A stretch of 64,000 nucleotides of DNA from positions 12,942-76,941 of the forward strand of contig CAKKRH010000007.1 in the NCBI GenBank assembly GCA_919902675.1. The letters are read 5' to 3'. Every line of letters starts with the position of its first letter. The first letter of the stretch is position 1. A program made the translations under genes and the position numbers. Under the pieces are notes generated by a model. The model saw nothing but the letters and a program-made list of their open reading frames with translations, did not search any database and was not told where the DNA came from. Source of the stretch: Omnitrophica bacterium GWA2_41_15. GTDB lineage: Bacteria; Omnitrophota; Gorgyraeia; Gygaellales; UBA12090. This document shows, one piece after another, positions 11,536-58,101 of the stretch.

Positions 11536-11652
11536 TTTGATACATTCGGCGGCGTTCAAACCCCGCCCTTTAGGCGGGGAAAGGTTACGCCGCTCTCAGT
11601 ATCAATCCTGAGCAAACCACGGTCTTTAGACCGTGGTGTCGAAGGATTGATT
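11536..11652 (-). mobile_element. 117-bp structured repeat element, copy A (MITE/RPE-like), in the 5' leader of the 11489 gene
   Basis: Its reverse complement matches 36396-36513 with a single 1-nt indel. It holds two stem-internal loop-stem hairpins (TCAATCCT...AGGATTGA around ACCACGGTC-TTTA-GACCGTGGT, and GGCGGCGT...ACGCCGC around CCCCGCCC...GGCGGGG). At this locus it is flanked by the inverted repeat GATACGATTAC (11522-11532) / GTAATCGTATC (11659-11669). Confidence 0.75.
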
Positions 11653-13794: not shown

Positions 13795-13837
13795 ATATCT
13801 TACTGCTACACCGTGCAGTTAATTCTTGCATGGTTGT

Positions 13838-13913: not shown

Positions 13914-13978
13914 TACATTGTTACAGAAGTTTTTGAACAATTGAACAATAGAAAATAGACCGCAATTGAGCTTTTTTC

Positions 13979-14057
13979 TTGTCTATTGTTCTATTTGCTC
14001 GATTGCTCAATTGCTCTCTCGCGCTGTTATTAAAAATTTTATGTAACAGCGCACTAC
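13979..14057. repeat. direct repeat copy 2, abutting and overlapping the xerD-like stop codon
   Basis: Same sequence family as 13838-13913, with a few substitutions or indels in the ATTGCTC-word part. The core GCGCTGTTATTAAAAATTTTATGTAACAGCGCACTAC is identical. Confidence 0.8.
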
Positions 14058-15556: not shown

Positions 15557-18098
<2,542 letters not shown>

Positions 18099-19437: not shown

Positions 19438-19549
19438 TTAAAAGAAGCAACTCTTAATCCCACTGGTGGCGGGTTTTGTTTAAATCCTTTTCGCCTTACC
19501 TTTGTTGCTTTTCCTCTGTGAACTGTCAACCGTGAACTGTGAACTAATA

Positions 19550-19627
19550 TGGTCGGGGCGACAGGATTTGAACCTGTGGCCTCGTCGTCCCGAACGACGC
19601 GCTCTAGCCAAGCTGAGCCACGCCCCG
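19550..19627 (-). tRNA. tRNA-Pro (anticodon CGG), CCA encoded
   Basis: Hand-folded 78-nt cloverleaf: CGGGGCG acceptor, GCTC/GAGC D-stem, CGTCG-TTCGGGA-CGACG anticodon arm, ACAGG-TTCAAAT-CCTGT T-arm, then ACCA. Confidence 0.9.
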
Positions 19628-23211: not shown

Positions 23212-23324
23212 AAAAACCCCAAATACTAAACCATAAATCCTAAACAAGTCCAAAAGCTAAAATCCTAAACCCAAAACACATGTTTTGAGTTTGTTTAGAA
23301 TTTAGGGTTTCGAGTTTAGGGTTT
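23212..23324. repeat. second copy of the TAAATCC-word long hairpin element (ribH-nusB spacer)
   Basis: The core at 23234-23271 matches 7591-7628 at 36/38. The left arm AAACCCCAAATACTAAACC pairs imperfectly with the right arm GGTTTCGAGTTTAGGGTTT. Confidence 0.7.
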
Positions 23325-23341
23325 AAATGATATCCTTGTTA

Positions 23342-34434: not shown

Positions 34435-35409
34435 TTAACCCTCTACGGTCAAGGATTCTTTAAAAAACATGCTGGATAAGAGCCTTCTTTTACCTAAGGC
34501 CGAAGGCGCGCATTTTAAGACCCCGGAAACCAATTTTTTTAGCGCCTTAGGCCGGAAAAACAATAAGTAAACCGCCGCGGCGCAATCATATAAGATAACA
34601 AATGGCAGGGAACTTAAGAAACCCAGCCAGGTTTCATTCTTAATTATGGCCAGCCAGCGGTTTTTCATCAAATCCGCGCATAGGTCGTCATCTAAGTAAT
34701 GGCGGGCAAATCTCCTGCCTATACCCTCATCCCGGCGCACCGTGGCTCCCCGGGCATGATAGGCTATTGCCTGGGGGATATAGTAACCCCTCCACCCGGC
34801 CCTCTGGGCCCGCCAGGCCATATCCAGGTCCTCATAAAAGATATGGAAATCTGGATCAAAATACTCCTGACCAATCTTAATCTCTTCCAGCATCTGCCTG
34901 CGGTAGAAGGCAACCGCTCCATTTACCCCAAAAATGTATTCCTCCCTTTCGAATCTTCCGGTATCAATCAATCCATGCCCTCTTTCCCCGGCTGTGCGCC
35001 AGACACTCAAGAACAGCCCGGTTGAGTCTATGGTTTTGCCGTCGGCGCGTAAAACCTTGGCGCTGACCATGCCGATTTTACTATCTTTACCAAATCCCTT
35101 TAAGGCTTGTGTAAGAAAATCCTTATCCAGGACTACATCATCGTTTAAGCAAAAGATAAACTCGCCTGAGCTTAAGGCTATGCCTTTATTCAGAGCCTGG
35201 CAGTAAAACAGATTCTCTCCTGATGAATACAGCCTGGCCTGGGGGTAATCCTCTTTTATCAGGCGGCTGAACTCGGAGTCAAGCGAATTATCAATGACTA
35301 TGATTTCGTAAGAAGAATAGACCTGCTTAAGCAGGGAATCCAGGCAAAGCCTAAGATAATCCTTCACCCCCTGGCTTACGATAACAATACTTACCAATGT
35401 ATTTGACAT
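34435..35409 (-). CDS. family 2 glycosyltransferase
   Basis: VSIVIVSQGVKDYLRLCLDSLLKQ...YEIIVIDNS and a later DDD-type motif (LNDDVVL) fit a GT-A fold. The start is at 35409 or 35415. Confidence 0.8.
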   Translation of the reverse strand: MSNTLVSIVIVSQGVKDYLRLCLDSLLKQVYSSYEIIVIDNSLDSEFSRLIKEDYPQARLYSSGENLFYCQALNKGIALSSGEFIFCLNDDVVLDKDFLTQALKGFGKDSKIGMVSAKVLRADGKTIDSTGLFLSVWRTAGERGHGLIDTGRFEREEYIFGVNGAVAFYRRQMLEEIKIGQEYFDPDFHIFYEDLDMAWRAQRAGWRGYYIPQAIAYHARGATVRRDEGIGRRFARHYLDDDLCADLMKNRWLAIIKNETWLGFLSSLPFVILYDCAAAVYLLFFRPKALKKLVSGVLKCAPSALGKRRLLSSMFFKESLTVEG

Positions 35410-35430
35410 TTGCATTTGGCGCGCTACAAT
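35403..35430 (+). promoter_or_regulatory. promoter candidate for the O-antigen-ligase-like gene (short or no leader)
   Basis: Plus strand reads TTGACA (35403-35408), a 16-nt spacer, then TACAAT (35425-35430). The ATG at 35440 is only 9 nt downstream. Confidence 0.5.
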
Positions 35431-35439
35431 TTAAGGATA

Positions 35440-36720
35440 ATGTTTTACGCCATACTCTTATTTATCTTTTACCGGCCCTTTATCTCTTCTTTGTCCTTCC
35501 CGGTTTTAAATTCAGCCTATTCCACCATCTTTCTGCTTTTTCTAATCATCTGGACTATCCTGAAACGCGAAGGCATACAAAAAAACCTCCCGGCAAAACT
35601 AAAGCCACCGCTCATACTCTTCATCCTGTCTCTTATTGTTTCAACCTTATTTTCTCAAAACAAAACCCATAGCCTCCAGGAATTCCCGCAATATCTCATC
35701 GGCCTACTGCTGTTTATGCTCCCGTTCTCATTATCGCCTAAAAACAAAAAGCTCGTCCTTTCAGCCATTATCCTTGCCGGATTAGGCATAAGCCTGCTGG
35801 CTATTTACCAGTATTTATTTGGCTTTGAATATATCCTTGATTATTTAGCCAAAGAAAACACTCCTTCCGCCGGCCTCATCACTTACCTTAGCCAAAGACG
35901 GGCCTTCCTGCCTTTTATCAGCCCAAATACCTTAGCCGGATACCTGATAATGATTATACCCCTAAGCCTGGCCTTTAAAAAGCGGATTTTCTTCATTTTA
36001 CCCCTGGGGCTAGCTTTATTACTCACCAAATCCTTAGGAGCGCTTTTTAGCCTATTCATAGGATCAATGCTATACTTTTACCTAAATAACCAAAAGGGCA
36101 GGCGGAAAATTGCCCTACTTTGCGGTTTCTCGGTGATTATCCTGCTGATTTTTCTTCTTCGCCAAAATAGCGGCTCTCAATTCAACCAACCCGGATTCTC
36201 ATTGCTAAGGCGCTGGGATTATTGGAAGGAAACTGTTGAAATTATAAAGCTTTTCCCCTTTTTGGGGGTGGGATTGGGGGCTCTACATCTCAGCCAGGTC
36301 AGATATGCCCACAACTGCTATTTGCAAATCTGGGCGGAGATGGGAATATTCGGAATCGCTTCTTTCTTTTGGTTGATAGCTGAAACCTATAGTTTAATCA
36401 ATCCTTCGACACCACGGTCTAAAGACCGTGGTTTGCTCAGGATTGATACTGAGAGCGGCGTAACCTTTCCCCGCCCTAAAGGGCGGGGTTTGAACGCCGC
36501 CGAATGTATCAAACGCGATTTTCTAAACAAAAAAAATATTTCTGTATTATCTGCCGCGATATTCACCTTTATCATCCATAATCTGGTTGATTTTACTTTT
36601 TCTCTGCCTGAAACAAGTTTCATCTGGTGGATAATCTTCGGTACCTACATCTCTCTCCATGAGCCTAAAACTACCGCAACATTTGTTGACGGCGGGGGTG
36701 TGCCCGTAACCCTCAGCTGA
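35440..36720 (+). CDS. O-antigen ligase/polymerase-family membrane protein (Wzy_C-like) carrying an in-frame repeat-element insertion
   Basis: Polytopic protein. YAHNCYLQIWAEMGIFG matches the O-antigen-ligase-domain core. The frame stays open through the 36396-36513 element, and TM-like sequence resumes after it (AAIFTFIIHNLVDFTFSLPETSFIWWIIFG). The track start at 35410 is a TTG. Confidence 0.7.
   Translation: MFYAILLFIFYRPFISSLSFPVLNSAYSTIFLLFLIIWTILKREGIQKNLPAKLKPPLILFILSLIVSTLFSQNKTHSLQEFPQYLIGLLLFMLPFSLSPKNKKLVLSAIILAGLGISLLAIYQYLFGFEYILDYLAKENTPSAGLITYLSQRRAFLPFISPNTLAGYLIMIIPLSLAFKKRIFFILPLGLALLLTKSLGALFSLFIGSMLYFYLNNQKGRRKIALLCGFSVIILLIFLLRQNSGSQFNQPGFSLLRRWDYWKETVEIIKLFPFLGVGLGALHLSQVRYAHNCYLQIWAEMGIFGIASFFWLIAETYSLINPSTPRSKDRGLLRIDTESGVTFPRPKGRGLNAAECIKRDFLNKKNISVLSAAIFTFIIHNLVDFTFSLPETSFIWWIIFGTYISLHEPKTTATFVDGGGVPVTLS
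36396..36513 (+). mobile_element. structured repeat element, copy B, inserted in frame in a coding sequence
   Basis: Near-identical (one 1-nt indel) to the reverse complement of 11536-11652. It is translated as about 39 residues, ...NPSTPRSKDRGLLRIDTESGVTFPRPKGRGLNAAECIK..., between hydrophobic segments. Confidence 0.75.
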
Positions 36721-37127
36721 ATTCTCCTCACCGCTATCACAGCGTTTGAGGCATCCAAGACTTCGCCGGTAGCATCAATTATTCTCTCCCCTGTCCCGAG
36801 GCTCACGATATACCTATACCTCCCGCTTCCCATAGACACATTCGTGGAACTGGTTGTGCCGGAGTTAGTTCTGGCCCAGGCCTTGGCCTCTTCAATGCCC
36901 GCCTGGGCTAAATAAAAAGCTGATTGACTGTTCTTTTCTAAGGAGCGCACCTGTATTTCCACATGCCACAAAGAGGCCAAAACAGCCGTTATGACTACCG
37001 CGACCACAAAGAAAAATAAAACAAGCATGAGAATCTGTCCGCTCTTTGCGTTGTTAAGCGACGCGCGGTTAAACTTGCTTTTTGTTCTAGAATTTCTAAT
37101 AGAAATAAAACTTTTTCTCGTTCTCAA
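36645..37127 (-). CDS. PilX-N-like pilus minor component
   Basis: One N-terminal TM (ILMLVLFFFVVAVVITAVL) is followed by SAFYLAQAGIEEA, the pattern seen in PilX N-terminal domains. The start overlaps the upstream ORF by 4 nt (ATGA). Confidence 0.55.
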   Translation of the reverse strand: MRTRKSFISIRNSRTKSKFNRASLNNAKSGQILMLVLFFFVVAVVITAVLASLWHVEIQVRSLEKNSQSAFYLAQAGIEEAKAWARTNSGTTSSTNVSMGSGRYRYIVSLGTGERIIDATGEVLDASNAVIAVRRIQLRVTGTPPPSTNVAVVLGSWREM

Positions 37128-37378
37128 TTTTGATACTCCATGGAAAGAAGTGTGAAATTAGAAGTCCAGCGGGCGATGCCTTTAGAGACGCGGAATTCGT
37201 CTATTTGACCATTCAAACAATTGCCTGTTCCATTAGCCCCTGCTCCAATAAATAATGAGGCTGAAAAATCAGGCACAGCATCAGCATCGCTTTCATCGGT
37301 CCCCAAGTGTTTCTCATTCACAAATATTTTCCAAGTACCTCCATTATCTATGATGACGACATGATACCAAACACTCAC
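37124..37378 (-). pseudogene. C-terminal half of a LamG (concanavalin-like lectin) domain; probable remnant
   Basis: WYHVVIIDNGGTWKIFVNEKHLG...LNGQIDEFRVSKGIARW covers only the second half of a LamG fold. It opens with GTG and is preceded in the same frame by TAA-AAG-TAA. Confidence 0.5.
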
Positions 37379-37438
37379 AATTTGGAATTGGTAGAAGCAT
37401 AAAACTATGAGTTGTGGAGCGATGTCCCGTGCTTACTT

Positions 37439-46698: not shown

Positions 46699-48512
46699 TT
46701 ACCCTCCGCTATCTCAGCGCTTAGGCTAAATTTCCTTATTCGTGAACCGGTAAGGCGCGATTCTTGTCCGTTACCTCCAAAATCAGCGCTATTTATCTGT
46801 TCTAGGCTTAAAGGCGTCAAGCTTACCTTGCTGAAGTATTGCGACGATTCCAACCGCCCTTTAAATAACTCAACTATCTCAAGGGCGCGCTCGTAATCCG
46901 CCAAGACCCAGGCTTCAATTTTCATTCTAAACGACGCGTCCTCAACGGCTCCCCCCAAAGCTATCTGCCCTGGACCCTCCTGCCGCTCAATAGATAAACT
47001 GCTCCTGGCGGCGGTAAATCTATTAAAAACAACCTCTCGCGGAATGAGATTGGTTATTATTCTTAACAGCGAATGAAACCTCTTGGTTTTATCGGAAAGA
47101 AGGTTAAACTTGAAAAATCGCTGATCCAGTATATTTTTCTGCTGGCTTAACGCGTTCATTCTTTCGCTAATATCTTTAAAACCGCTCAACTCTAAATCAA
47201 GCCGCGCGATTTGTTTTTGAAGATAACCCCTCTGGGCCAGGATATACCCGCCTGCCAGAATAAAAATAAAAGCCAACCCCAGGGCAATTAAGAATAATAC
47301 CGGACTCCACCGGGCGGCTGTTTCTTTACGCTTAAACTCCTTAGGAAGAAAATTAACGACCGCGTCCTCGCTGCCTTTAACCCAGGCCAGGCTAATAGCG
47401 TTAGCATATATGGCCGCGGACAAAATGATTTCATTGCTTATATTCTTTGTTTCTACCGCTTTCAAATTGGCAAAAGGCTTAACAATCCCGCCTTCCCCGC
47501 CAATTAGTCCGGCCAGCATGGAAACAAGATTTTTTATCAGGCATCCCCCTCCCAGAAAATAAACACTCTCTACCCTCCTGCCCGCGGAATGTTCTTTATA
47601 ATAAATAAATGTCCGCCTTAATTCTTGAATCATTCTTTCAATGTGTGCCTGCCAAAGCATTCTTAATTCCAGACGATTTATTCTGGAGGCGCCTGGAAGC
47701 GATGGATCCTTGCCGGCTTCATATTTTTGGCGCATTATTTCTTCAACAATCGCCACTTTATTCTTAATATCAAAATCTACCTGGGGCACGCCCTCTTCTC
47801 TTATTATTCTTTCCGCTTCCGCGGGCGAAATACCTAACTGAGCGGAAATATCCTTTGCAATATCCCGCAGGGAATAACCCAGGCTTCGCGTAGAAACTAA
47901 TTTTCCATTCCTGGAAATAGAAATATTTAAATTACTCACCCCCAGGTCAACGAAAGCGATATCCTCATCCTTTTTCCAAGTCTCTTTGGGCGACAGATAG
48001 GCTATCGTGCAAGGAGAAGGAGCAATTAAAGAAGGAATAATGTCCGCGTTTTTACAAAGGTCGAGTATTCTCTGGACATGTTTATTTTCAGTCCTGATTA
48101 CCGAAACTTCAAACTTACGATTATCAGGACTGCCGCTTTCACCAACAAAAGAACATTCAAAATTATGATCCGCGGTAGAGGCAGGGATCATTGTGCGTTT
48201 GGCTTCAACTATGGCCGCCAAAAACAATTCCGACATATTCATTTTCGGCAAAGACACAACTATAGTAGATATATATTCCGGCGCCAGCGTTATCGCGACT
48301 TTGGATCTTCTAAGCCTGGAGAGAGAAATAAAGGTAAAAATCTGTTTCCAGAAGCCAGATGGATCAATTTCTTTTGAAACGGCATCCGGCTGAAAAACCG
48401 CGTAAGGAGTTTTAAATATGAAAACATTTGACAAGAGGAGGGTTTTTCTTCGCTCCATCCTGGCTATCTTGGTAGTATCCGCCCCTATGTCTATAGCTAT
48501 TATCTCCACCAC
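46695..48512 (-). CDS. PilM-PilN fusion protein
   Basis: The N-terminal actin-like ATPase fold (IIAIDIGADTTKIA...FVDLGVSNLNISI...LGGGC) is PilM. After a TM (WSPVLFLIALGLAFIFILAGGYIL), a coiled coil and a PilN-like periplasmic domain follow. Confidence 0.7.
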   Translation of the reverse strand: MVEIIAIDIGADTTKIARMERRKTLLLSNVFIFKTPYAVFQPDAVSKEIDPSGFWKQIFTFISLSRLRRSKVAITLAPEYISTIVVSLPKMNMSELFLAAIVEAKRTMIPASTADHNFECSFVGESGSPDNRKFEVSVIRTENKHVQRILDLCKNADIIPSLIAPSPCTIAYLSPKETWKKDEDIAFVDLGVSNLNISISRNGKLVSTRSLGYSLRDIAKDISAQLGISPAEAERIIREEGVPQVDFDIKNKVAIVEEIMRQKYEAGKDPSLPGASRINRLELRMLWQAHIERMIQELRRTFIYYKEHSAGRRVESVYFLGGGCLIKNLVSMLAGLIGGEGGIVKPFANLKAVETKNISNEIILSAAIYANAISLAWVKGSEDAVVNFLPKEFKRKETAARWSPVLFLIALGLAFIFILAGGYILAQRGYLQKQIARLDLELSGFKDISERMNALSQQKNILDQRFFKFNLLSDKTKRFHSLLRIITNLIPREVVFNRFTAARSSLSIERQEGPGQIALGGAVEDASFRMKIEAWVLADYERALEIVELFKGRLESSQYFSKVSLTPLSLEQINSADFGGNGQESRLTGSRIRKFSLSAEIAEGK

Positions 48513-49718
48513 CTAATCTCCAATAACCTGTGCCAACTGAAACATAGGCAGCAGGACCGAAATAGCGATACCCCCCACTACTACGCCTATCACCACAATC
48601 ATTGCCGGCTCAAAAAAAGTAAACATCATTTTTATGGTCGCGGGAACTTCCCGGTCATAAAATAGATTGACCTTGTCCAAGGCCTCAGGAAGCGAGCCTG
48701 ACTGTTCGCCCACACCAATCATACGCACCACAAGCGGGGGAAAATCTCCAGTTGCCTGCAAAGAGGTAGAAATCTTTTCTCCCACATTCACTGAATCGCG
48801 CGCCTTGGCCACTGAACGCTCTAAACGGATATTACCGACCACTTCACTGGCAATATCTAAGGAGGACAAAACAGTCACCCCTGACTTCAAAGATATGGCA
48901 AAGGTGCGACAAAACCTGGAGAGGGCAACCTTGCGTAAAAGCTCTCCAAAAACAGGTAGCTTTAGCTTAAAATTGTCTATCACATACCTGCCTCCCGGTG
49001 TAGAATAATAAAATTTATACCCGACGACCAGTAAAACCGGTGTCGCCAGACACAGATACCAAAAACTACGGACAAAACTACTTACTCCTAACACAATACG
49101 GGTGGGCAAAGGCAAAGATATCCCCCCCTGGGCAAACAACGGTTCAAAAATAGGAATCACCTTGACTACTAGTAAAATCACCACCCCCATCATCGCGCAA
49201 ATAAGCGTGAGCGGATAGACCATAGCCTCAGTCATCTTTGACTTCAATTCCAACTGCCACTCCAGAAGTCCAATCAAGTCTTTAAGGGCGCTCAATAATT
49301 TGCCTGTACTTTCTCCGGCGCCCACAATAGACGTATATATCTTCGGAAAAGATTTAGGATGATAGGATAACGATTCCCGCAGGGACATTCCGCCTTCCAC
49401 GCGCAGACGTATATCCTCAATCAGCTTACGGACGTCATCTACCGCGGCGTCTCTGGCTAAATCCCCCAAAGCCGAAGAAAGATGCGCTCCGGAATCAAGC
49501 AAAGCGTAAAGATGAATGGTAAAGGTAAGGACATCCCTGGGCTTAAGCCGACGGAGTCTATAATTTACCTTAACGGGGTTGGCGACAACTTTGGCGCGGA
49601 TAAGATAGTGCCCTAGGCCGGAAACCTTATTGGCCAGATCCAGATCATTTTCGGCCGGGATAACGCCGTGCAGGACCTTCCCCAAACTATCACTGGCAGT
49701 ATAGGAATAGGTTTGCAT
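48513..49718 (-). CDS. pilC: type II secretion system F family platform protein (PilC/GspF)
   Basis: 401-aa ORF with a duplicated T2SSF domain, three TM segments and a C-terminal ...PMFQL pattern. Confidence 0.9.
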   Translation of the reverse strand: MQTYSYTASDSLGKVLHGVIPAENDLDLANKVSGLGHYLIRAKVVANPVKVNYRLRRLKPRDVLTFTIHLYALLDSGAHLSSALGDLARDAAVDDVRKLIEDIRLRVEGGMSLRESLSYHPKSFPKIYTSIVGAGESTGKLLSALKDLIGLLEWQLELKSKMTEAMVYPLTLICAMMGVVILLVVKVIPIFEPLFAQGGISLPLPTRIVLGVSSFVRSFWYLCLATPVLLVVGYKFYYSTPGGRYVIDNFKLKLPVFGELLRKVALSRFCRTFAISLKSGVTVLSSLDIASEVVGNIRLERSVAKARDSVNVGEKISTSLQATGDFPPLVVRMIGVGEQSGSLPEALDKVNLFYDREVPATIKMMFTFFEPAMIVVIGVVVGGIAISVLLPMFQLAQVIGD

Positions 49719-49797
49719 TACTCTCCATATTTACAAAACACAATGCCTTATTTCTCACTTCCGCGCTTAAACAGGAAGTCTGCTTTGATTATAAGTT

Positions 49798-49826
49798 GTT
49801 ATAAATTAAAAGCGCCGGCTTGTCAA
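49798..49826 (-). promoter_or_regulatory. sigma70-type promoter of the pilus operon
   Basis: Minus strand reads CTTGACAAG with TTGACA at 49821-49826, a 17-nt spacer, then TATAAC (49798-49803). A leader of about 75 nt with GGAGAG precedes the pilC ATG. Confidence 0.55.
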
Positions 49827-49929
49827 GCTATAAAAACACCAGAATTACTTATCCACCACTTGCTTCCTTATACATAATTTTGAATATCCTACTTTTCATT
49901 TATCGAAAATATACTTATCCAATCGATAA

Positions 49930-50658
49930 TTACAGGCCGCCTATTTTCTTCCCGTCAATTATCGCGGAAGCCAAGACACGCGTCTCAGCAGAAATTTCCA
50001 TCTCTTTATCTTTAGCGCTTTCGGTAGTAATGCGAACTTCTTTTACTTTACCCACGCCCCGAGCAAGCCAAAAAATGCGATTTTCTTTTCCATGGCTCTC
50101 CGTATTTGCCCAATCAACATCAAGAGAGAATTTTAAACAATCAGAAAATTTTCCCGCAGGCACCGCGACATCCTCGGCTGATACAAGCTTTATCTGAACA
50201 TTTACCCTGAAATCTCCTATTTTTTTATTATCAAATGCGCTAATTACAAGATTGGTAGAATAATTTACACTTCCTCCAATTTCAATATTTCCTGGCACCT
50301 CTATATTTGGCGGATCAAATATTCTATAATTCTCATCTTCCATATCGACTGTTTTATATTTCTTTACACCTTCCGAATCGAAAGCAAAACACTCATATTC
50401 GTAGTCTATGGAATTTAATCCGGAATATAATTTTACGGTATTTGTCCCAGATATTATTTCTTCGCCATTAATCCTTAAGGTTTCTTCACTGCCTCCGCCT
50501 TCTTTTGTTGCGTATGTCCAAGTATTTCCTTGATGTAAAGGATAAAACTCTTCTGTTATATTAGCGGCTAAAGCAAAATTGGCAGGCATAATTAACATCA
50601 TTATTAAAAAGAGGGTGATATGTTTCACGTTTGCCTGAAAAAATATCTTTTCTTCCAT
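49930..50658 (-). CDS. secreted beta-rich hypothetical protein
   Basis: The preferred start is MEEKIFFQANVKHITLFLIMMLIMPANFALA (signal peptide). The mature part begins EEFYPLHQGNTWTY. No family recognised. The track start at 50724 overlaps the upstream gene. Confidence 0.5.
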   Translation of the reverse strand: MEEKIFFQANVKHITLFLIMMLIMPANFALAANITEEFYPLHQGNTWTYATKEGGGSEETLRINGEEIISGTNTVKLYSGLNSIDYEYECFAFDSEGVKKYKTVDMEDENYRIFDPPNIEVPGNIEIGGSVNYSTNLVISAFDNKKIGDFRVNVQIKLVSAEDVAVPAGKFSDCLKFSLDVDWANTESHGKENRIFWLARGVGKVKEVRITTESAKDKEMEISAETRVLASAIIDGKKIGGL

Positions 50659-50684
50659 TTTTTCCTCCCGCGTAAGTAACGAAG

Positions 50685-51410
50685 TTAGACAAAAAACCCA
50701 TGCCGAAGCTTGTGCCATGACCAAAGCATTTCAACAACTTTTGCTCTAAACGAACTAAAACTTGCTCCCGTAGGCTTACCTTTCTTGCGAGGATAATGCC
50801 TCACCTCTATCTCTTTAACAAGATATCCTTTTTTCAAAGCTTTTATCAACATTTCAGCGTTAATAAATCCTCCCGTACTTTCTAATTGCAATTCATCAAG
50901 CACCGACTTCTTAATCAGTTTGAAACCACAGGTTATATCTTTTATATTTATTTTAAACAATAGGCAAATTAAGAAATTATATAATTTCCCAACCAAAGCT
51001 CTATATAATTGGTCATGGCGAACTGCTCGCTTGCCAATGATAATGTCAAAATTATCTATGTGCGGGACAAACTTGTGCAAATCGGAGATAAGGAATTGTC
51101 CATCCGCGTCCATAAAAAACACCGAAGGATATTTTGAGCTCCTGAAACCACTTAACAACGCTCCGCCATATCCTATATTTCTTGGCAAACAAATCACTTT
51201 TAGGCGCGGAAAGACACAAGACAATCTCTCTATGGCATTACTGCTCTGATCTTCACTTCCATCGTCCACCACAATCACTTCGTAATTCTTAGCCATATTC
51301 GGGATAAAATTCATTACCGATTGGACAATATATTCTATATTGTCCTCTTCATTATATACTGGCAAAACTACAGATATTCCTTTTTCTGCGCTATTCATAC
51401 ATATTTCCAC
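50685..51410 (-). CDS. family 2 glycosyltransferase, polyprenyl-phosphate sugar synthase-like (soluble form)
   Basis: ISVVLPVYNEEDNI...YEVIVVDDGSEDQS...FFMDADGQ are GT2/DPM1-like motifs. No C-terminal TM. Confidence 0.8.
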   Translation of the reverse strand: MEICMNSAEKGISVVLPVYNEEDNIEYIVQSVMNFIPNMAKNYEVIVVDDGSEDQSSNAIERLSCVFPRLKVICLPRNIGYGGALLSGFRSSKYPSVFFMDADGQFLISDLHKFVPHIDNFDIIIGKRAVRHDQLYRALVGKLYNFLICLLFKINIKDITCGFKLIKKSVLDELQLESTGGFINAEMLIKALKKGYLVKEIEVRHYPRKKGKPTGASFSSFRAKVVEMLWSWHKLRHGFFV

Positions 51411-51420
51411 GTTCTGATTT

Positions 51421-52656
51421 TCAGCGTGCGTCCTTATATGCGCTTAAAACCACAGCTATTTTTAATTTCTTTGCAATGTATATTAAATTATTCCTTGATA
51501 ATGAAGGATAATTAGGCATCCCTAAGACTTCATTAAATGCTTTTAAGGCCTCCGGATAAACTCTCTTTTCACCATAGAGAAATGGGCAATATCTCGCCAG
51601 ATTTTCATTAGTATCAATTCCATTTATTAATAATCGCCACATGAGCCTCTTTTTATCTTTGCTTCTCACTACATAACTATAAGCCACGGGTGAAACATTT
51701 ACTTGTAATTTATAATAGCCTCTATTATCACTATCGCAAAAATCATCGATTAATGCACTATTCTCTATTCGCTTCCTATTGTTGATATCAACAATCCCTA
51801 TCTGCTTTAACCCAAATAATGCCTGCAAATTGGATAATTTTGTTATAGATTTTTTACCTATAAACATTTTCTTAATTGTCATGCTATACACTGTTGACAG
51901 ATTTATTCCTATAACTTTTAATATTATAAGACACGGAAAAACAAACAAGCTAAAGAATAACGGCCTGGTAACAAAATAAAGAAAATATGATATACAGATA
52001 TTTTTTATTAAGTCAATCCTTGTGATTGAAGGCAAATATTTTATTCTTTTTTTTATTTTATCTGCTAATAATGGATCGTTAGTAGCAATCATTCCTCCAC
52101 CAAAAGTATTAAAATGTTTTACCGTGGCAAAGCTAAAATAGGATGCTCTCCCGAAAGAACCAACTTTCCGACTCTTATACAGCGCTCCAATGGAATGAGC
52201 GCAATCTTCTAAAACAATAAGATCATATTTCTTAGATATAGATAATATTGATTCAATATCACAAGGCCTGCCGAATAAATGCGTTGCGATGATTACTTTC
52301 GTTCTTACGGTTATACTTTCCTCTATTTTTTGTATATTAATATTGTAATCAATTGGGTTCACATCAACGAAAACCGGCATGAATCCGCATTCAACGATAG
52401 TCTGCAAAACACTTTCATCGGTAAAAGCGGGGATTACTATCTCCGATCCATTATCCAAAGAAAGCGCTTCCAATATTATCTTTAAACCCACCCTGCCGGA
52501 TGAGACAGAATTTGCAAACTTTACGCCAATATACCGCGCGAACTTTTTTTCGAATTCATCGACAAAATTTCCCTCTATCCATTTTCCTGTGAGAAGACTT
52601 AAAAAGATATCTATAAATTGGCCTTTATAAATAGTTATACTTCTTCTAGGGAACAT
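51421..52656 (-). CDS. DegT/DnrJ/EryC1/StrS-family sugar aminotransferase with an unusual hydrophobic insertion
   Basis: GNFVDEFEKKFARYIG, IATHLFGRPCD, EDCAHSIG and FSFATVKHFNTFGGG (PLP Lys context) are present. The ATG at 52656 lies 1 nt after the upstream stop (the track starts at 52725). Confidence 0.75.
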   Translation of the reverse strand: MFPRRSITIYKGQFIDIFLSLLTGKWIEGNFVDEFEKKFARYIGVKFANSVSSGRVGLKIILEALSLDNGSEIVIPAFTDESVLQTIVECGFMPVFVDVNPIDYNINIQKIEESITVRTKVIIATHLFGRPCDIESILSISKKYDLIVLEDCAHSIGALYKSRKVGSFGRASYFSFATVKHFNTFGGGMIATNDPLLADKIKKRIKYLPSITRIDLIKNICISYFLYFVTRPLFFSLFVFPCLIILKVIGINLSTVYSMTIKKMFIGKKSITKLSNLQALFGLKQIGIVDINNRKRIENSALIDDFCDSDNRGYYKLQVNVSPVAYSYVVRSKDKKRLMWRLLINGIDTNENLARYCPFLYGEKRVYPEALKAFNEVLGMPNYPSLSRNNLIYIAKKLKIAVVLSAYKDAR

Positions 52657-52657
52657 C

Positions 52658-53725
52658 TTAAACCTCGCAGCTCTTATAACAAATTCCCATAAAACGCCGA
52701 ATCGCTGAAATAAAAGATCCGACATCCAAAGAACCGATTAAATTTAACTCTACAGCGCTATGAGTCCAACAAGACCGGCATTGAGATACTTCTGAGTCAG
52801 AATTATTCTCCAAATGCTCAAGCTTTCTTACCCGTTGTCTTTCTTTATTTAATCCCCATCCGCACGCATACATGCTTCCATTAGTTTCCATTCTAAACAT
52901 AATTTTCCCGGCTAAACACGACAGCTTCCTCTCTTCCGGAAAGCTATACAAATGTTTGAGATTGGCGATTGAATTTAGAATAAATCTGTTACCGCTAAGC
53001 TTTTTGTTAATTAAATATGCGATAATTTCCTTATAAGTTCGCTCGATGGGAGATAAATGATTAATCTCTCTGGAACCTAAACAGCACAAAGAAGCCGGCT
53101 GAAAACCTATTTCTATCTTATAATCTTCAGCTAAAGCAAGTAAAAAATCAATATATTTAAAATCTGAATTCAATTTTGAAATCACTGTTGTCAGCGAAAC
53201 CGGGACATTCTTATTCTTTGCTATTTCTACGGCTGTAATGGTTGATTTAAAAGCGCCCTTTCCTCTCAAGGCATCATTAATTCCTTCAGGGCCGTCTAAA
53301 CTTAAATTCAACCTACTTATACTGCGCAAACAATCAATCTTATCTTTCAATAAAATTCCATTTGTATTTAAGCTATTGATTAAGCCTCTTTCGCTTGAAT
53401 GGTCAAGGATGCGTCCTATGTCATCTCTCAATAAAGGCTCTCCTCCCGTAAAGCTGATATACCTCGTTCCGCGCGAATAGAGCTTATCGATGATATTACA
53501 CACTTCAGAAGTATTTAATTCCCTACCACTAATCTTCCACACATGACAATTAGCGCAATGCAAATTGCATCTGGTTGTTAACCTCCAGCTAATAAACAAA
53601 GGATATGCAATATTTAAAAACTTGAACTTTAATAAAGCCACCAAAAGGTTATCTTTTAATAGCTTTTTATACACCTTACCCATTTTACCCCTTGCTTGAT
53701 TGCGGTTAAAGTCAATGCGCGCCAT
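52658..53725 (-). CDS. radical SAM enzyme with Cys-rich C-terminal (SPASM/twitch-like) region, paralog A
   Basis: It has CNLHCANC (CX3CX2C), ISFTGGEPLL and LSLDGPEGINDALRGKGAF. The C-terminus carries LSCLAGK...NGSMYACGW...CRSCW. Confidence 0.8.
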   Translation of the reverse strand: MARIDFNRNQARGKMGKVYKKLLKDNLLVALLKFKFLNIAYPLFISWRLTTRCNLHCANCHVWKISGRELNTSEVCNIIDKLYSRGTRYISFTGGEPLLRDDIGRILDHSSERGLINSLNTNGILLKDKIDCLRSISRLNLSLDGPEGINDALRGKGAFKSTITAVEIAKNKNVPVSLTTVISKLNSDFKYIDFLLALAEDYKIEIGFQPASLCCLGSREINHLSPIERTYKEIIAYLINKKLSGNRFILNSIANLKHLYSFPEERKLSCLAGKIMFRMETNGSMYACGWGLNKERQRVRKLEHLENNSDSEVSQCRSCWTHSAVELNLIGSLDVGSFISAIRRFMGICYKSCEV

Positions 53726-53752
53726 CCGTTAAATATTACAAACCTATCAATA

Positions 53753-54967
53753 TTATAAGACTGATAATCGCATTAAAGCTTCGTTATATACTTCATCAAC
53801 AGTTATCGCACTTACGCATTTATTATCCTTACATGCAGACTTTCTGTAATTATATGCAGATATGCAAGGACTGCAGATAAATTGTTTATAGAATATCTTG
53901 CTTTTCATGCTCAGTGGCTTGTAAAGTAATGGTGTTTCGGGACCGAACAAAACAATTATTTCTATTGCCGTAAGGCTGGCCAAATGCACCGCTCCGCTAT
54001 CATGACTTATAAGAAGATTTGATATATGAAATAAGCCTAAAAGCTCTTTAATGGTTATTTTTCCCACAAGATGAATACACTGGGGATGCGGCACTGCTTT
54101 CTCAATTAACGCTATATCCCGCTGACGAATGTTATTACCTATAGTAATAACAAAAATGTTGGGAACGCTAAGAAAACGATTCGCCAATTGTATATAGCTG
54201 TCGAACGGCCATCTGCGTATTGGCAAAACATCATTAATACAGGGATGCACTAAGATTATTTTGGAATCCCTTTCTATTTGTTTATTATAGTTCCTTAATT
54301 TTAACCACATCGCATTCTCTCTTTCTTTATTTACTTTTACTTGAAGAGAAAAAAACTCATTACTCATCAAGAACTCTTTTAGAAAGGGTTCATGTGAATG
54401 CGCCTTTAGCGCCTGCGCAAGCGCTAAAAAGTTGTTACTCATATGCATATAATGATTGTAGTTTACTTTGTGTGTAAGTAAATTCCCCCGATAAGGGTTT
54501 TTTGCTGAAAAACCATAAAAACCCACCCTAACCCTTGCGCCGGATAAATAACTGAGAAAACTGCTAAACCTTGAGAAGAGCTCAAAATCAATAATAACGT
54601 CAATCCTTTCTTTACGAATCCTCCATACATTCTTTATTATATCAATACATAAACAAAGAAAATTATCCTCTCGCATAGCAATGACATTCTCTTCTGGGAA
54701 TATACCCAAAATTGGCACGATATCCTTATTTTTATTAAAAATCCATAAATAAAGCTTACTATGTGGAAATAATGCTTGCACTTTTTTCATTGCAGGGTAT
54801 CCCAGGATAACGCTGCCTATCTCTGAAAGTTCTAAAAATAATATATTTTTAGGATCGCCGTTCGCGTGAGAGCAGAAAATGCTTTTTAGCGTATTTAAAA
54901 GAGACAGCGCCATGCAAAGAGGTATCCCGAGCCAAAAATCAATCCTCCTTGCGATGGTAATATTCAT
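53753..54967 (-). CDS. family 9 glycosyltransferase (heptosyltransferase-like)
   Basis: LFLELSEIGSVILGYPAMKK is the N-domain. The C-domain ISHDSGAVHLASL...LFGPE matches the GT9 D(S/T)GxxH(L/I)A motif. Confidence 0.7.
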   Translation of the reverse strand: MNITIARRIDFWLGIPLCMALSLLNTLKSIFCSHANGDPKNILFLELSEIGSVILGYPAMKKVQALFPHSKLYLWIFNKNKDIVPILGIFPEENVIAMREDNFLCLCIDIIKNVWRIRKERIDVIIDFELFSRFSSFLSYLSGARVRVGFYGFSAKNPYRGNLLTHKVNYNHYMHMSNNFLALAQALKAHSHEPFLKEFLMSNEFFSLQVKVNKERENAMWLKLRNYNKQIERDSKIILVHPCINDVLPIRRWPFDSYIQLANRFLSVPNIFVITIGNNIRQRDIALIEKAVPHPQCIHLVGKITIKELLGLFHISNLLISHDSGAVHLASLTAIEIIVLFGPETPLLYKPLSMKSKIFYKQFICSPCISAYNYRKSACKDNKCVSAITVDEVYNEALMRLSVL

Positions 54968-55035
54968 CTAAAGTTATGCCATTTACACATGCGCCAAAGA
55001 ACCTTATCTTACGCAAAAACATCTTTACGAAAAAA

Positions 55036-56445
55036 TTAGTCTTTAACCATGCATGACGTAATATGGTTCATTAAAATGCTTAAGCCGTTCCGAAGCTTGC
55101 TTCTTAAATCTGATAAATTATGCAGACAATATATTCTCTCCATAAAATAAGCGGGCCTAAGGTAAAAAGAGCGTATTGCTTCCTGCCTTAAAGACCAAAT
55201 TTCGGCGCGATTAAGATGCTTTGTTTCAATTGTCGGATAGCTAATGCCGCTATCCATGAAACACAAACTATCCTCTACCATTGAATTCTCGATTAGCTTC
55301 TTTCTCAGTTCAGTGCCGTACGATGGAGTAAAAATATTAAACGAGGCATAATCGCAACCTATCTGTATGGAAAATTGAATAGTTTTTTTAATCATTTCTT
55401 TATTATCTCCTGGCAACCCAATGATAAATGTACCGACAGTATCAATACCAAACCGTTTGCACAAGGAAAACACTTCTTTAGTTTTTTGTAAATCTAACTT
55501 TCTGTTAAAATTTGATAGCAATTCCTGGCTTAATATTTCTACCCCGAAAATAATAGTGTGGCAACCCGCCTTTTTCATTGTTAAAAGTAATTCTTCATCC
55601 ATTATATCTGTTCGACTAAAACATATCCAACCAATATTAATATTATTATTTATGATTTCCTCGCAAAGAAGAAAGGCTCTTTGCCTGTCCGCAGCAAATG
55701 TTTGGTCCTTAAAGACAATTTCATGTATCTTAATATCCTTAATAAATTTGATTTCCTCCATTACCCCGCTTATTTCTCTTTTTTTATATCCAAAACGATT
55801 AACTACACAATAGCTGCATTTAAAAGGACAACCAAAATCTGTCATAACTGTAGCGAACCGCCTGCGCCTTGCGAAAGGAAACCCGTAGTTTCTATTTTTA
55901 AATAAATCATGGCGCGGAGTCGGAATTGAGAATACACCTGAAGCATGTAATTCTCTCCTCATTACGATATTTTCCTTATCTTTAAAAATAATGTTAAAGT
56001 ACGCGGAATCCTTTTTCTTAATGAACGACACGATGTCATTCGTGGTAAAATCTAAAAGGATGGCATCCATGAAACTATTATTCTCAAGCAATTCTTTCCC
56101 GTAATCTATAAAAATATCCCCTATCCCAACCATTAAACATTTTATTTTTGATTTAATCTTCCATAGAAAAGGCATGTCGCTTCCTAGAGACACAGCCCCT
56201 GAAAGAAATATAATTACCTCAGGATTAATTTTTATTATTCTCTTGAGAGATTCACTACTGTTTAATTTTTCCGTAATACAATCAATAATAAAAATATTAA
56301 AGTGCGCGGATAAAATTCCACTTAATATAATAAAATCTATCGGATGATAGCAATAAGAGGCTTTGGAAATTTTACTGCAATAATAATCCCTCATAAACAA
56401 ACTCCTGCCGGGCGGATTCAACAAAAGAACTTTTATTCTATTCAC
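55036..56445 (-). CDS. B12-binding-domain radical SAM enzyme (class B)
   Basis: It has an N-terminal Rossmann-like cobalamin-binding region (KVLLLNPP...IIFLSG...MVGIGDIF), followed by CPFKCSYC and a radical SAM core. Confidence 0.8.
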   Translation of the reverse strand: MNRIKVLLLNPPGRSLFMRDYYCSKISKASYCYHPIDFIILSGILSAHFNIFIIDCITEKLNSSESLKRIIKINPEVIIFLSGAVSLGSDMPFLWKIKSKIKCLMVGIGDIFIDYGKELLENNSFMDAILLDFTTNDIVSFIKKKDSAYFNIIFKDKENIVMRRELHASGVFSIPTPRHDLFKNRNYGFPFARRRRFATVMTDFGCPFKCSYCVVNRFGYKKREISGVMEEIKFIKDIKIHEIVFKDQTFAADRQRAFLLCEEIINNNINIGWICFSRTDIMDEELLLTMKKAGCHTIIFGVEILSQELLSNFNRKLDLQKTKEVFSLCKRFGIDTVGTFIIGLPGDNKEMIKKTIQFSIQIGCDYASFNIFTPSYGTELRKKLIENSMVEDSLCFMDSGISYPTIETKHLNRAEIWSLRQEAIRSFYLRPAYFMERIYCLHNLSDLRSKLRNGLSILMNHITSCMVKD

Positions 56446-56449
56446 TGCG

Positions 56450-57280
56450 TTAGCTCGAGATTAAATTCTTATCACATTGAAAATACCTATCCATCATTAT
56501 AATTATCCCAAAAAAAGATACAATTAAAAAACCTAAAAATTTGCTCATTAAAATACACTCTCCCGATAGCAAACAGAAGCCTAAAATATATAACAGCAAT
56601 AATATTCCTCTTGAAGGCTTGAAAAGAAAAGACAAAATCAATATTTTTATCAAGCTAATGAATCCAGATTTAACTGAAACTTTACTACCCTTACGCGAAT
56701 AAACATTGACAGGAACGAACTTTATTCTATGCATATTAAATATAAACAATACTGTACTAGTTGTGGTAAAAGAAAAAGTATCGGGAAGAAGGTCCAGGTA
56801 TTTTAAAATAATGCTTTTTTTATAAATTCTTAAGCCGGAATTTATATCTGGTATCTTAAAACCAACCGCAATATCAGCAAAAATATTTAATATGCGCCTC
56901 CCCGCGTTTTTCCACGAATAGAGATCAGTTCTCCCAACCCTTTTTCCCACAACCATATCAAAGGAATCAATATACCGCAACAGCGACTTAATATCCTTCA
57001 CATCATGCTCCCCATCCGCGTCTATTGATATAATTATATTATTTTTAGCGAGCTTAATCCCTGATTTCAGCGCCGCTCCATATCCCTTATTAATATGATG
57101 CTGGATAACCTTAACGTTAAAACCTTTAATTTTATTTATAGTGTCATCCGTTGAACCATCATTAATAACAATAATCTCCGAATCATAATAATTTTCCTGA
57201 ATATCAAGTAAAACTTTTTGAAGGGATGGTCCCTCATTATAAACAGGTATTATAATCGTAATTTCTTCGACTGTTATCAT
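56450..57280 (-). CDS. family 2 glycosyltransferase with C-terminal TM helices (GtrB/ArnC-like polyprenyl-phosphate glycosyltransferase)
   Basis: ITIIIPVYNEGPSL...SEIIVINDGSTDDT...ISIDADGEHD are present. Two predicted C-terminal TM segments (ILILSFLF...LLLLYILGFCLL; FLGFLIVSFFGIIIMM) follow. Confidence 0.75.
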   Translation of the reverse strand: MITVEEITIIIPVYNEGPSLQKVLLDIQENYYDSEIIVINDGSTDDTINKIKGFNVKVIQHHINKGYGAALKSGIKLAKNNIIISIDADGEHDVKDIKSLLRYIDSFDMVVGKRVGRTDLYSWKNAGRRILNIFADIAVGFKIPDINSGLRIYKKSIILKYLDLLPDTFSFTTTSTVLFIFNMHRIKFVPVNVYSRKGSKVSVKSGFISLIKILILSFLFKPSRGILLLLYILGFCLLSGECILMSKFLGFLIVSFFGIIIMMDRYFQCDKNLISS

Positions 57281-58079: not shown

Positions 58080-58101
58080 ATAATATACTATTCAAAAAAA
58101 C

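Follow-up and report, generated by a model that had tools for sequence, protein, structure and literature searches.

A gene for an O-antigen ligase-like membrane protein in the window (the whole stretch of 64,000 nucleotides analysed here) carries a structured 111-nt repeat inserted in frame, and we conclude, with a probability of roughly 0.85, that this repeat is a transposase-less member of the IS200/IS605 family, made up solely of its left and right ends. Such elements have been named palindrome-associated transposable elements (PATEs) in haloarchaea, where they were described as deriving from elements of the IS605/IS1341 type and lacking a transposase (Dyall-Smith et al. 2011, PMC3119063). 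The same figure applies to the reading as a whole, according to which a TnpA transposase acting in trans would have inserted the element as a single strand 3' of a TTGAT target, and the insert would have been kept as a tolerated loop. A preliminary description of this DNA had placed a structured repeat, which it called a MITE, at this position in the gene and had noted that the open reading frame (ORF) stays open. Place, structure and open frame are confirmed, and the repeat is supported as a dispersed mobile one, whereas the label MITE, in the sense of an element with terminal inverted repeats (TIRs), has to give way to the PATE type; a specific mechanism can therefore be named. The element is another member of an already known kind of element, and knowledge of that class itself is unchanged by the present finding.

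The product of the host gene matched the Pfam family PF04932 (Wzy_C; E = 4e-16, 59.5 bits against a cut-off of 31.7), and its homologs are named O-antigen ligase family proteins of Candidatus Omnitrophota. A PDB profile search with the protein gave no match. AlphaFold2 produced an all-helical model (pTM 0.75), and judged from the sequence and this multi-helix membrane fold, the host protein is O-antigen ligase/polymerase-like. The extra segment was absent from all of the 17 aligned homologs, including orthologs that are 74–82% identical, which bears out the proposal that it is an insertion. The empty sites in ortholog DNA read ...AGTTTAATC|AGGCGCGATTTT and ...AATTTGATA|AAACGCGATTTC, and the filled site in the window reads ...AGTTTAATC[111 nt]AAACGCGATTTT. 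The net gain by this comparison is 111 nt or 37 aa, not the 117 bp and about 39 residues first given. It should be underlined that the 121-nt stretch common to the two copies in the window (copies A and B, Table 1) includes target-derived flanks, T-TTGAT and TAAA, and that the limits of copy A were set by the transposon's own logic, reading the minus strand. This top strand reads ACATTC...GGATTGAT, and the peptide added to the host protein is NPSTPRS...AAECI.

Table 1. Features of the element, its host gene and its second copy (positions in the window).
Feature	Position	Strand	Description
Wzy_C host gene	35440..36720 (ORF 35410/35440-36720)	+	426 aa from the ATG common to the orthologs
Copy A	36397..36507	-	111 nt, 37 codons in frame in the Wzy_C gene; limits from ortholog empty sites and 12-copy boundaries
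Target TTGAT (left cleavage site C_L)	36508..36512	-	host-gene sequence, directly 5' of the element
Left outer stem	36494-36501 with 36454-36461	-	GGCGGCGT predicted to pair with ACGCCGCT; matching stem at the left end
Left guide G_L, CAAA	36489..36492	-	directly 5' of the foot of IP_L
Left subterminal hairpin IP_L	36469..36488	-	CCCCGCCC-TTTA-GGGCGGGG; 19 nt from the left cleavage point; from folding
Right outer stem	36440..36447 with 36397-36404	-	ATCAATCC predicted to pair with GGATTGAT; encloses IP_R and C_R
Right guide G_R, CAAA	36432..36435	-	directly 5' of the foot of IP_R
Right subterminal hairpin IP_R	36412..36431	-	CCACGGTC-TTTA-GACCGTGG; from folding and compensatory-change analysis
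Right linker	36402-36411	-	10 nt, TGTCGAAGGA, followed by the right cleavage site
Right cleavage site C_R, TTGAT	36397..36401	-	final 5 nt of the element
A8 homopolymer	36529..36536	+	16 nt 3' of the 121-nt repeat; one base shorter in the public assembly
Copy B	11542..11651	+ (top strand)	110 nt, 1-nt deletion in IP_L; target TTGAT at 11537-11541

With regard to the protein, the protein merely gains a 37-residue loop, because 111 nt correspond to 37 codons and the frame is free of stops. The added residues (321–357) follow the helix after the conserved His-containing loop, and AlphaFold2 modelled them at low confidence (pLDDT 47–56) as an excursion, mostly coil, between helices 303–320 and 364–384, in agreement with the earlier supposition that the insert sits in a loop. 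This loop is probably disordered and, because it is rich in Lys and Arg, probably lies on the cytoplasmic side; the topology is based on the positive-inside rule together with the model. A parity count from naive hydropathy proved unreliable. The host protein presumably keeps its function.

The same locus in a public 2.16-Mb assembly encodes a frameshifted protein (P0001) that diverges just past the insert, as would be expected if the open frame in the window were an assembly artefact and the gene in truth a pseudogene broken by the element. However, the shift stems from an A8 run that is one base shorter in the public sequence. Over 21 kb the two sequences differ by 23 indels, this one included, and about 20 of them are one-base differences in homopolymer runs; many other genes of that assembly, FtsK among them, are fragmented too. 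Since most of the indels fall in homopolymers and so many genes are fragmented, this comparison of the sequences indicates that the frameshift is best read as a homopolymer or long-read assembly error. Moreover, the frame in the window restores C-terminal helices that are conserved in all orthologs. We therefore consider a pseudogene very improbable, and the earlier view that the ORF is not disrupted stands.

Both copies in the window are strongly structured, with minimum free energies of -62.5 and -63.8 kcal/mol (z = -6.8 and -6.9), and none of 200 shuffles folded as stably on either strand. Alignment of the copies gave four helices in which 96.8% of the cells are paired and 8 pairs show compensatory changes, a degree of compensation reached by 0 of 500 shuffles; slid registers gave 0–2. 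The two outer stems (helices 1 and 3) have compensatory changes in 3 and 2 pairs, respectively, and such changes are also present in helix 2, which supports IP_L. The two hairpins, whose stems are unlike, are subterminal, and the ends of the element form no convincing terminal inverted repeats. Insertion has occurred 3' of a conserved TTGAT and there is no target-site duplication, the TTGAT at the right end being the element's own; alongside the target, it gives the appearance of a 5-bp direct repeat. The linkers are asymmetric, with 19 nt at the left (ACATTCGGCGGCGTTCAAA) and 10 nt at the right. The cleavage sites of IS608 are placed in the same way, C_L 19 nt 5' of IP_L and C_R 10 nt 3' of IP_R, and in the IS200/IS605 family the left linker always exceeds the right one (PMC3597680).

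In IS608, guide tetranucleotides recognise the cleavage sites by the rule c1:g2, c2:g1, c3:g3 (A:A) and c4:g4, so that TTAC pairs with AAAG and TCAA with GAAT, and the contacts include A+16:T-3 and A+17:T-4 (PMC5934647). Applied to the present element, the guide CAAA and the TGAT of the cleavage site would pair as T:A, G:C, A:A and T:A at both ends, which is the IS608 pattern of complementarity. A relative from a CPR bacterium has TTGAC at both ends and the guide CAAG, likewise at both ends, although few independent lineages stand behind this covariation. The plus strand was rejected as the active strand: it gives the guides GACA and CTTT without matching cleavage sites, whereas both ends agree with the guide rule when the minus strand is read. 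According to GC skew and gene orientation, the minus strand is presumed to be the lagging-strand template; the top strand of copy A fits this and that of copy B does not (n = 2).

The occurrence of TTGAT on both sides of the inserted DNA is also what a classical TIR-type MITE would leave behind if a DDE transposase moved it and duplicated 5 bp at the target, and with TTGAT removed the ends retain a weak inverted similarity (ACATTCGGCGGC versus TCCTTCGACACC, about 7 of 12 positions). Yet the supposed duplication is not variable: TTGAT stands directly 5' of each of the 12 copies whose left end is visible, with variable bases farther upstream. A duplication model predicts no link between target and guide, but in the CPR relative TTGAC changes together with CAAA to CAAG at both ends. 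The 19/10-nt asymmetry and the guide pairing match IS608, and the genes that adjoin the hairpin elsewhere are Y1_Tnp and TnpB genes, not DDE genes (see below). Such a MITE is thus a very poor candidate. Directly after the element, 12 of 14 copies have a T, and ISDra2 likewise inserts 3' of TTGAT (PMC2806898) with a preferred next base (PMC2806898, PMC5934647).

That the repeat is dispersed and mobile, as had been supposed, is supported by its second copy in the window and by sister copies elsewhere. The match of copy B to copy A spans 11536-11655 on the opposite strand, is 99% identical and has sharp boundaries; the 20-mer of hairpin 1 has an expectation of 0 chance matches in the window. Copy B sits in a leader, with a c-di-GMP-I riboswitch on one side and a small ORF on the other, and its reconstructed empty site is predicted to fold into a long hairpin (about 17 bp) with the insertion point in the apical loop. 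The copies in the window are solitary and do not form the regularly spaced array of a CRISPR. The window also contains GTAG-tagged palindromes at 13877-14057.

Sister copies lie in frame in Epimerase_2, Radical_SAM and histidine kinase genes, in hisI, in an iscU-like gene and in the gene of an AroA-like protein, and 4 of the 9 copies sampled as DNA are inside Pfam-recognised genes. The repeat is thus tolerated in coding sequence, as originally proposed. All three stop-free frames are used across the hosts and give three unrelated peptides; the element therefore does not act as a module at the protein level. Its length is a multiple of three (111 nt, or 150 nt in a variant), and both sense phases that the TTGAT target allows within an ORF are free of stops, the third phase reading TGA in the target itself. 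Shuffling gave no evidence of a coding-compatible design: at least three of the six frames stayed open in 22% of the dinucleotide-shuffled sequences, and about 5% had the exact configuration, which is not significant. A peptide word-index search with the three frames joined returned 14 candidates without the window's own protein among them, which makes it unusable for counting. An exhaustive HMMER search with the frame read in the Wzy_C gene gave 24 representatives, a number that is not an estimate of prevalence, as an ortholog without the insert often stands for a whole cluster at 50% identity and several of the matches are translated hairpin arrays.

The fold is very stable on both strands, compensatory changes extend even to the outer stems that IS608 does not need, and copy B is located in a riboswitch-controlled leader; all this could point to a functional RNA or DNA signal (a terminator, attenuator, sRNA or protein-binding site) that the host selects for, mobility being secondary. 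Such a role appears extremely improbable, given that orthologous sites are empty and that copies occur in both orientations relative to transcription, inside unrelated coding regions as well as between genes. Rfam searches at gathering and permissive thresholds also assigned the element to no family, the sub-threshold matches (12–19 bits) being to single hairpins.

The 20-mer of IP_R was found at 94 loci of public genomes. Among 122 ORFs adjoining the hairpin, the most frequent family was OrfB_IS605 with a Cas12f1-like TNB domain (TnpB), and the hairpin adjoins TnpB genes at L024, L036 and L043. At a further locus (L089), the hairpin follows the end of a Y1_Tnp gene (PF01797, E = 5e-34) at a distance of 13 nt. 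In haloarchaeal loci that share the hairpin, the guide AATA or AATG is combined with TTAT, TTAC or TCAC, and the linker is 19 nt long. The guide rule had no convincing fit in two-hairpin repeats of the Ignavibacteria type and no obvious fit in TnpB elements of gut MAGs that carry the same hairpin.

Repetitive extragenic palindromes (REPs) are short GC-rich hairpins, and their associated tyrosine transposases (RAYTs) are related to IS200 TnpA. From this kinship, and from the presence of the same 20-nt hairpin in short two-hairpin repeats of Ignavibacteria, Bacteroidota and Acidobacteriota and of GTAG-tagged palindromes in the window, it might be argued that the repeat is a REP/BIME-like doublet, kept and moved by a domesticated RAYT, and not a pair of IS200/IS605 ends. 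However, its hairpins are preceded by CAAA and bear neither a GTAG nor a CGTC tag. REPs are extragenic by definition, but many of the present copies lie within genes, and the unit is of fixed length, with defined ends, a specific target and asymmetric linkers of the IS608 type. A REP/BIME origin is consequently quite improbable.

An autonomous partner for the IS200/IS605-type element was sought, and searches of public genomes found no full-length element with these exact ends. In the 64-kb window, no Y1 transposase was present among the 25 of 88 families listed. A regular-expression screen for TnpA found nothing. A tblastn search with an approximate IS200 TnpA query matched L089 only and nothing in the window. 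When TnpA of L089 was used as the seed for a database search, no match from the 2.16-Mb contig was among the best 120; the matches listed were mostly unnamed metagenome proteins, the one named being a Gallintestinimicrobium IS200/IS605 transposase.

We infer from the architecture that the element is mobilised by TnpA in the present organism through single-strand chemistry. A Y1 (HUH) TnpA, supplied in trans, would bind both subterminal hairpins on the single-stranded top strand, and the CAAA guides would set the position of the cleavage sites. The element would then be excised as a single-stranded circle and reinserted exactly 3' of TTGAT in single-stranded target DNA, without duplication of the target. 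One such event may have placed it on the antisense strand of the Wzy_C gene, at a codon boundary. Insertions that break genes would be lost, and those that fall in a tolerant loop and a stop-free frame would be kept.

To our knowledge, no transposition mechanism has been assigned to the Rickettsia palindromic elements (RPEs). Here an RPE-like outcome is tied to the well-understood single-strand peel-and-paste transposition of the IS200/IS605 family, with its TTGAT|T target, its lack of duplication and an excision that is seamless in principle. Since the mechanism is defined, it becomes testable where insertions arise, whether they are reversible and whether filled and empty alleles coexist in populations. 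When uncultured lineages are annotated, inserts of this type lengthen the proteins, give rise to spurious small ORFs and may be mistaken for lineage-specific loops or domains. A more far-reaching idea, which we regard as unlikely, is that this is a PATE family adapted to compact, intergenic-poor genomes (Omnitrophota and CPR) by way of reversible in-frame loop inserts. If so, the 3n length, the stop-free sense phases and seamless IS200/IS605 excision would together make in-frame loop insertions non-lethal and fully reversible, and genes for surface polysaccharides, signalling and biosynthesis would hold a pool of peptide insertions that can be switched on and off. In its wider version, which we hold equally doubtful, one lineage of Y1 transposase and hairpin, with the identical 20-nt hairpin, would extend across bacterial and archaeal phyla.

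Compared with known systems, REP/BIME repeats with their RAYTs share with the present element GC-rich hairpins on which a Y1 (HUH) enzyme akin to IS200 TnpA probably acts, but the present element is an untagged two-end unit with a specific target and many intragenic copies. RPEs are short palindromic repeats that lie in frame in many unrelated genes, where the added peptide is tolerated by the fold, and each of them encodes a conserved peptide according to a review of MITEs (PMC10969869). The analogy with RPEs made at the outset thus holds for the outcome, in-frame palindromic inserts in unrelated genes, and fails for the conserved peptide, three frames being used here. Compared by description, the present element further differs from RPEs in its unrelated lineage (Omnitrophota), its IS200/IS605 architecture and its defined target.

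The element shares its 19/10-nt linkers and the guide tetranucleotides 5' of the hairpins with IS608 of Helicobacter pylori, and the TTGAT target with a preferred following base with ISDra2 of Deinococcus radiodurans. Unlike these two, it has neither tnpA nor tnpB, and it has predicted outer stems around each hairpin, one of which would sequester the right cleavage site. Its hairpins are unlike in stem and perfectly paired with no bulged base, whereas those of IS608 are nearly identical.

The closest likeness is to the PATEs of haloarchaea. In contrast to these, the present element comes from Omnitrophota, has relatives in CPR bacteria and has no identified parent transposon, and a large share of its copies lie in frame in protein-coding genes, which is not known of Haloquadratum PATEs. 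PATEs likewise have near-terminal palindromes, no terminal inverted repeats and no target duplication, a targeting sequence of 4–5 nt at the 5' end, where the distance from end to palindrome is the longer one, a size too short for a transposase, and highly similar ("homogeneous") copies (PMC3119063). Moreover, three haloarchaeal elements (L028, L040 and L043) carry the very same 20-nt hairpin at their left end.

The preliminary description placed a structured 117-bp repeat in an O-antigen-ligase-like gene. Both the repeat and the identity of the host gene are borne out: a second copy, 99% identical and in reverse orientation, lies in the window with similarity stopping sharply at both edges, the two strands fold with energies of -62.5 and -63.8 kcal/mol (z about -6.8 and -6.9 versus shuffled controls), and a Wzy_C domain (PF04932, E = 4e-16) was recognised in the host protein, whose closest named relatives are entries called "O-antigen ligase family protein" from Candidatus Omnitrophota. 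An Rfam search of the element gave no matching family. The host ORF stays open across the whole element, and the homolog alignment proposed earlier confirmed that the segment NPSTPRS...AAECI is an in-frame insertion, as it is missing in 17/17 aligned homologs, including orthologs that are 74-82% identical. The proposed length did not hold. Ortholog DNA shows the empty site (...AGTTTAATC/AGGCGCGATTTT in loci L096 and L097, ...AATTTGATA/AAACGCGATTTC in L095) where the window reads ...AGTTTAATC[111 nt]AAACGCGATTTT, so that the net gain is 111 nt, or 37 codons, and not 117 nt.

Location of the element copies and of other features (window coordinates unless a locus handle, denoting a public genome or contig, is given)
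Feature	Location	Strand	Remarks
Long ORF	35410-36720	+	one long ORF in 35400-37400; ATG common to orthologs at 35440
Copy A	36397-36507	-	in frame in Wzy_C; ORF 426 aa; element 111 nt
Copy B	11542-11651	+	110 nt; similarity 11536-11655
In-frame copy	L100		UDP-GlcNAc 2-epimerase; ORF 403 aa; element 111 nt
In-frame copy	L101		Radical-SAM protein; ORF 613 aa; element 111 nt
In-frame copy, variant	L102:1475-1624		sensor histidine kinase; ORF 643 aa; element 150 nt
Variant	L103 (~1900-2070)
Wzy_C ortholog	L106:2501-3793		insert 120 nt / 40 aa
Wzy_C ortholog	L107:465-1757		insert 135 nt / 45 aa
Same locus, public assembly L098	ERZ1286166 contig_28, 1283177-1304370		element at same site
A8 run	36529-36536		A7 in L098
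TnpB-associated elements, gut MAGs	L036:1050-1230; L011:60-200
20-nt hairpin unit, example	L006:3150-3240
c-di-GMP-I-GGC riboswitch	11845-11931	-	63.1 bits; gathering score 59
Riboswitch leader	11515-11680		holds copy B
37-nt palindromes	13830-14057	-	two perfect copies, 144 nt apart
tRNA genes in repeat	8191-8564; 19474-19627		63.2 bits each; families D1 and D4
AT-rich repeats	7568-7684; 16035-16065; 23214-23327		intergenic; families D5, D7, D12, I3
Tandem 132-174-nt repeats	10102-10489		within ORF 9892-11034 (-)
Low-G+C block	48001-64000		last 16 kb

The reading frame, described as open, is intact in the window. The public 2.16-Mb assembly L098, which matches the window at 99.69% identity over 21 kb, is one base shorter in the A8 run and its product (P0001) is truncated. 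Of the 23 indels that separate these two sequences, about 20 are one-base homopolymer-run differences, and L098 also has FtsK, a T2SS ATPase and further genes broken up; given these homopolymer indels we read its frameshift as a probable assembly error. This amounts to roughly one homopolymer indel per kb, with many genes fragmented, and proteins predicted from that assembly should be used with care.

With regard to the host protein, an AlphaFold2 model from 101 sequences (mean pLDDT 77.8, pTM 0.75) places the insert (residues 321-357, block pLDDT 47-56) for the most part as coil between helices 303-320 and 364-384, in agreement with the loop position that had been presumed. A sequence search for a solved structure of the protein gave no match. 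Short Lys/Arg-rich loops (41-53, 98-104, 177-181, 216-223 and 358-366) alternate along the chain, with a large loop containing the invariant His291 between such loops; by the positive-inside rule, the insert would lie in a cytoplasmic loop.

On the minus strand the element reads TTGAT/ACATTCGGCGGCGTT-CAAA-CCCCGCCC TTTA GGGCGGGG ... GAG-CAAA-CCACGGTC TTTA GACCGTGG-TGTCGAAGGA-TTGAT/ (slashes at the boundaries), which, as judged from sequence, matches IS200/IS605 ends in its geometry. In IS608 the cleavage sites lie 19 nt 5' of the left and 10 nt 3' of the right hairpin, and a guide tetranucleotide stands directly 5' of each hairpin foot (PMC3597680). Its cleavage site/guide pairs, TTAC with AAAG and TCAA with GAAT, with contacts A+16:T-3 and A+17:T-4 (PMC5934647), give the rule that c1:g2, c2:g1 and c4:g4 are canonical and c3:g3 is A:A. 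Under this rule TGAT and CAAA of the element form T:A, G:C, A:A and T:A at both ends. Moreover, ISDra2 inserts 3' of exactly TTGAT (PMC2806898).

Seven further copies came from a metagenome scan (six on contigs labelled Hain-H41/H43, from ENA assemblies ERZ1292630 and ERZ1292640, and one on a JGI contig) and four more through proteins matched by the element's translations. Eight copies are exactly 111 nt long, two outside recognised genes have 110 and 112 nt, and one variant has 150 nt. Each of the 12 copies whose left end is visible has TTGAT directly 5' of it, the bases farther upstream being different, and the element is followed by T in 12/14. The TTGAT on both sides could be taken for a duplicated target; that model, however, does not predict what is seen in a relative from the Candidatus Andersenbacteria (CPR) MAG L088, where the right-end hairpin and architecture are the same, TTGAC occurs at both ends and both guides are CAAG. 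This coupled change is a prediction of the guide model. In an 11-sequence alignment the two inner hairpins and two outer stems, one of which pairs with the right cleavage site, have 96.8% of cells paired and 8 compensatory pairs, a number reached by 0/500 shuffles (slid registers give 0-2). The variants in L102 and L103 have the guide GAAA, not CAAA, and their left linker is enlarged by about 39 nt or more of hairpin-forming sequence, including TCCTTCGACA, which is the right linker in reverse complement.

The published definition of palindrome-associated transposable elements (PATEs) names near-terminal palindromes, a targeting sequence of 4-5 bp, a distance that is longer on the 5' side, a lack of inverted terminal repeats and of target duplication, and a size too short for a transposase (PMC3119063), and the element matches it. 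Every testable structural feature of an IS200/IS605-derived PATE was found. The earlier "MITE" reading stands as regards an in-frame mobile repeat, its kind being refined by ends, target and guides to such a PATE.

The search for other intragenic copies, also proposed earlier, showed that four of the nine copies found by DNA alone sit in frame within Pfam-recognised genes. Protein searches added in-frame copies in hisI (after codon 8) and an iscU-like gene, and a diverged one in an AroA-like protein. All three stop-free element frames are in use, so that no module is under selection at the protein level. In sense orientation TTGAT fits only two ORF phases, because the third reads TGA, and both run on into stop-free frames; in antisense one of three phases is open. 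Against shuffled sequences this open-frame pattern is statistically unremarkable: P is about 0.22 for at least three open frames and about 0.05 for the exact arrangement. To explain the in-frame copies it is enough that harmless insertions survive. The Wzy_C orthologs in L106 and L107 carry other hairpin-rich in-frame inserts, both in another Lys/Arg-rich loop after NNQKGRK and one with TIR-like ends; together with the element, this makes three unrelated structured insertions that the gene has accommodated across related lineages. Separately, the predicted proteins P0127, P0128, P0130, P0137, P0146 and P0150 show regular repeats of PRPKGRG(L/S)IEA or PRSEDRGLIEA and look like translated CRISPR-like hairpin-repeat arrays, whose stems, judged from the protein sequences, would resemble the element's two hairpins.

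The right-end hairpin 20-mer occurs at 94 loci in public genomes, against about one by our own chance estimate. Among 122 flanking ORFs, OrfB_IS605 and Cas12f1-like_TNB, a combination that marks TnpB, are the commonest Pfam families, and TnpB was confirmed beside the hairpin in L024, L036 and L043. In L043 (Haladaptatus) the hairpin forms the left end of a TnpB element, where the linker measures 19 nt and TTAT goes with AATA; in two Haloquadratum loci AATG goes with TTAC or TCAC. In the Myxococcales MAG L089 an IS200-type Y1 transposase gene (PF01797, E = 5e-34 after repair of its single internal stop) ends 13 nt before the hairpin. TnpA was not found within the 64-kb window, nor was an autonomous partner with the same ends found among public-genome loci, metagenome copies or the 120 best matches to the L089 TnpA. 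Judged by GC skew and gene strand, the lagging-strand template is the minus strand, with which copy A agrees and copy B does not (two copies only). The reconstructed copy B target sits in the apical loop of a long hairpin (about 17 bp), in the leader between the riboswitch and a downstream small ORF of no known family; speculatively, such a hairpin could expose single-stranded DNA independently of replication. Related TnpB-associated elements in L036 versus L011, and L043 versus L028/L040, have a flipped hairpin loop (TAAA versus TTTA) and one stem arm replaced, with flank orientation kept, so that the active strand cannot be told reliably from loop orientation. The identical 20-nt hairpin, CCACGGTCTAAAGACCGTGG, is also present in numerous MAGs of Ignavibacteria, Bacteroidota and Acidobacteriota (among L001-L094), there as part of another kind of short unit, made up of GGGGCTAAAGCCCC, a ~20-nt spacer, the hairpin and CTAATCA, often followed by tandem 7-14-nt repeats (L014, L023, L092-L094); the IS608 guide rule does not fit this unit.

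Elsewhere in the window, the 37-nt palindromes (GTAG-TGCGCTGTTA...TAACAGCGCA), each preceded by short CAATTGCT/CTATTGCT tandem repeats, are a GTAG-tagged REP-like element that might be a hint of a RAYT-type enzyme encoded elsewhere in the genome. The repeat around the two tRNA genes reaches beyond the tRNA and holds CTGTGAACTGTCAACTGTGAACT, and the AT-rich repeats, of the AAACCCTAAACC / TTTTGAGTTT type, are present in both direct and inverted orientation. The product of the ORF with tandem repeats is a repetitive protein rich in Arg, Asp and Glu (DRREDxRDRRED...), and its N-terminus is signal-like. In the last 16 kb G+C falls from about 0.45 to 0.32-0.38 with GC skew unchanged; the genes there may form a block that was acquired horizontally or is related to polysaccharides.

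Among the papers listed by a literature search with Omnitrophota and Omnitrophica as terms, none mentions either name. The kind of element is already known, and this one is a clean example that lends itself to mechanistic interpretation. According to a recent review it is "not unusual" for intragenic MITEs to give in-frame fusions, Rickettsia palindromic elements (RPEs) being the extreme case (PMC10969869). The analogy with RPEs drawn earlier proved apt at the level of outcome, in-frame copies being present in unrelated genes: in its presumed mechanism the element resembles the ends of IS608 and ISDra2, and in outcome it resembles RPEs.
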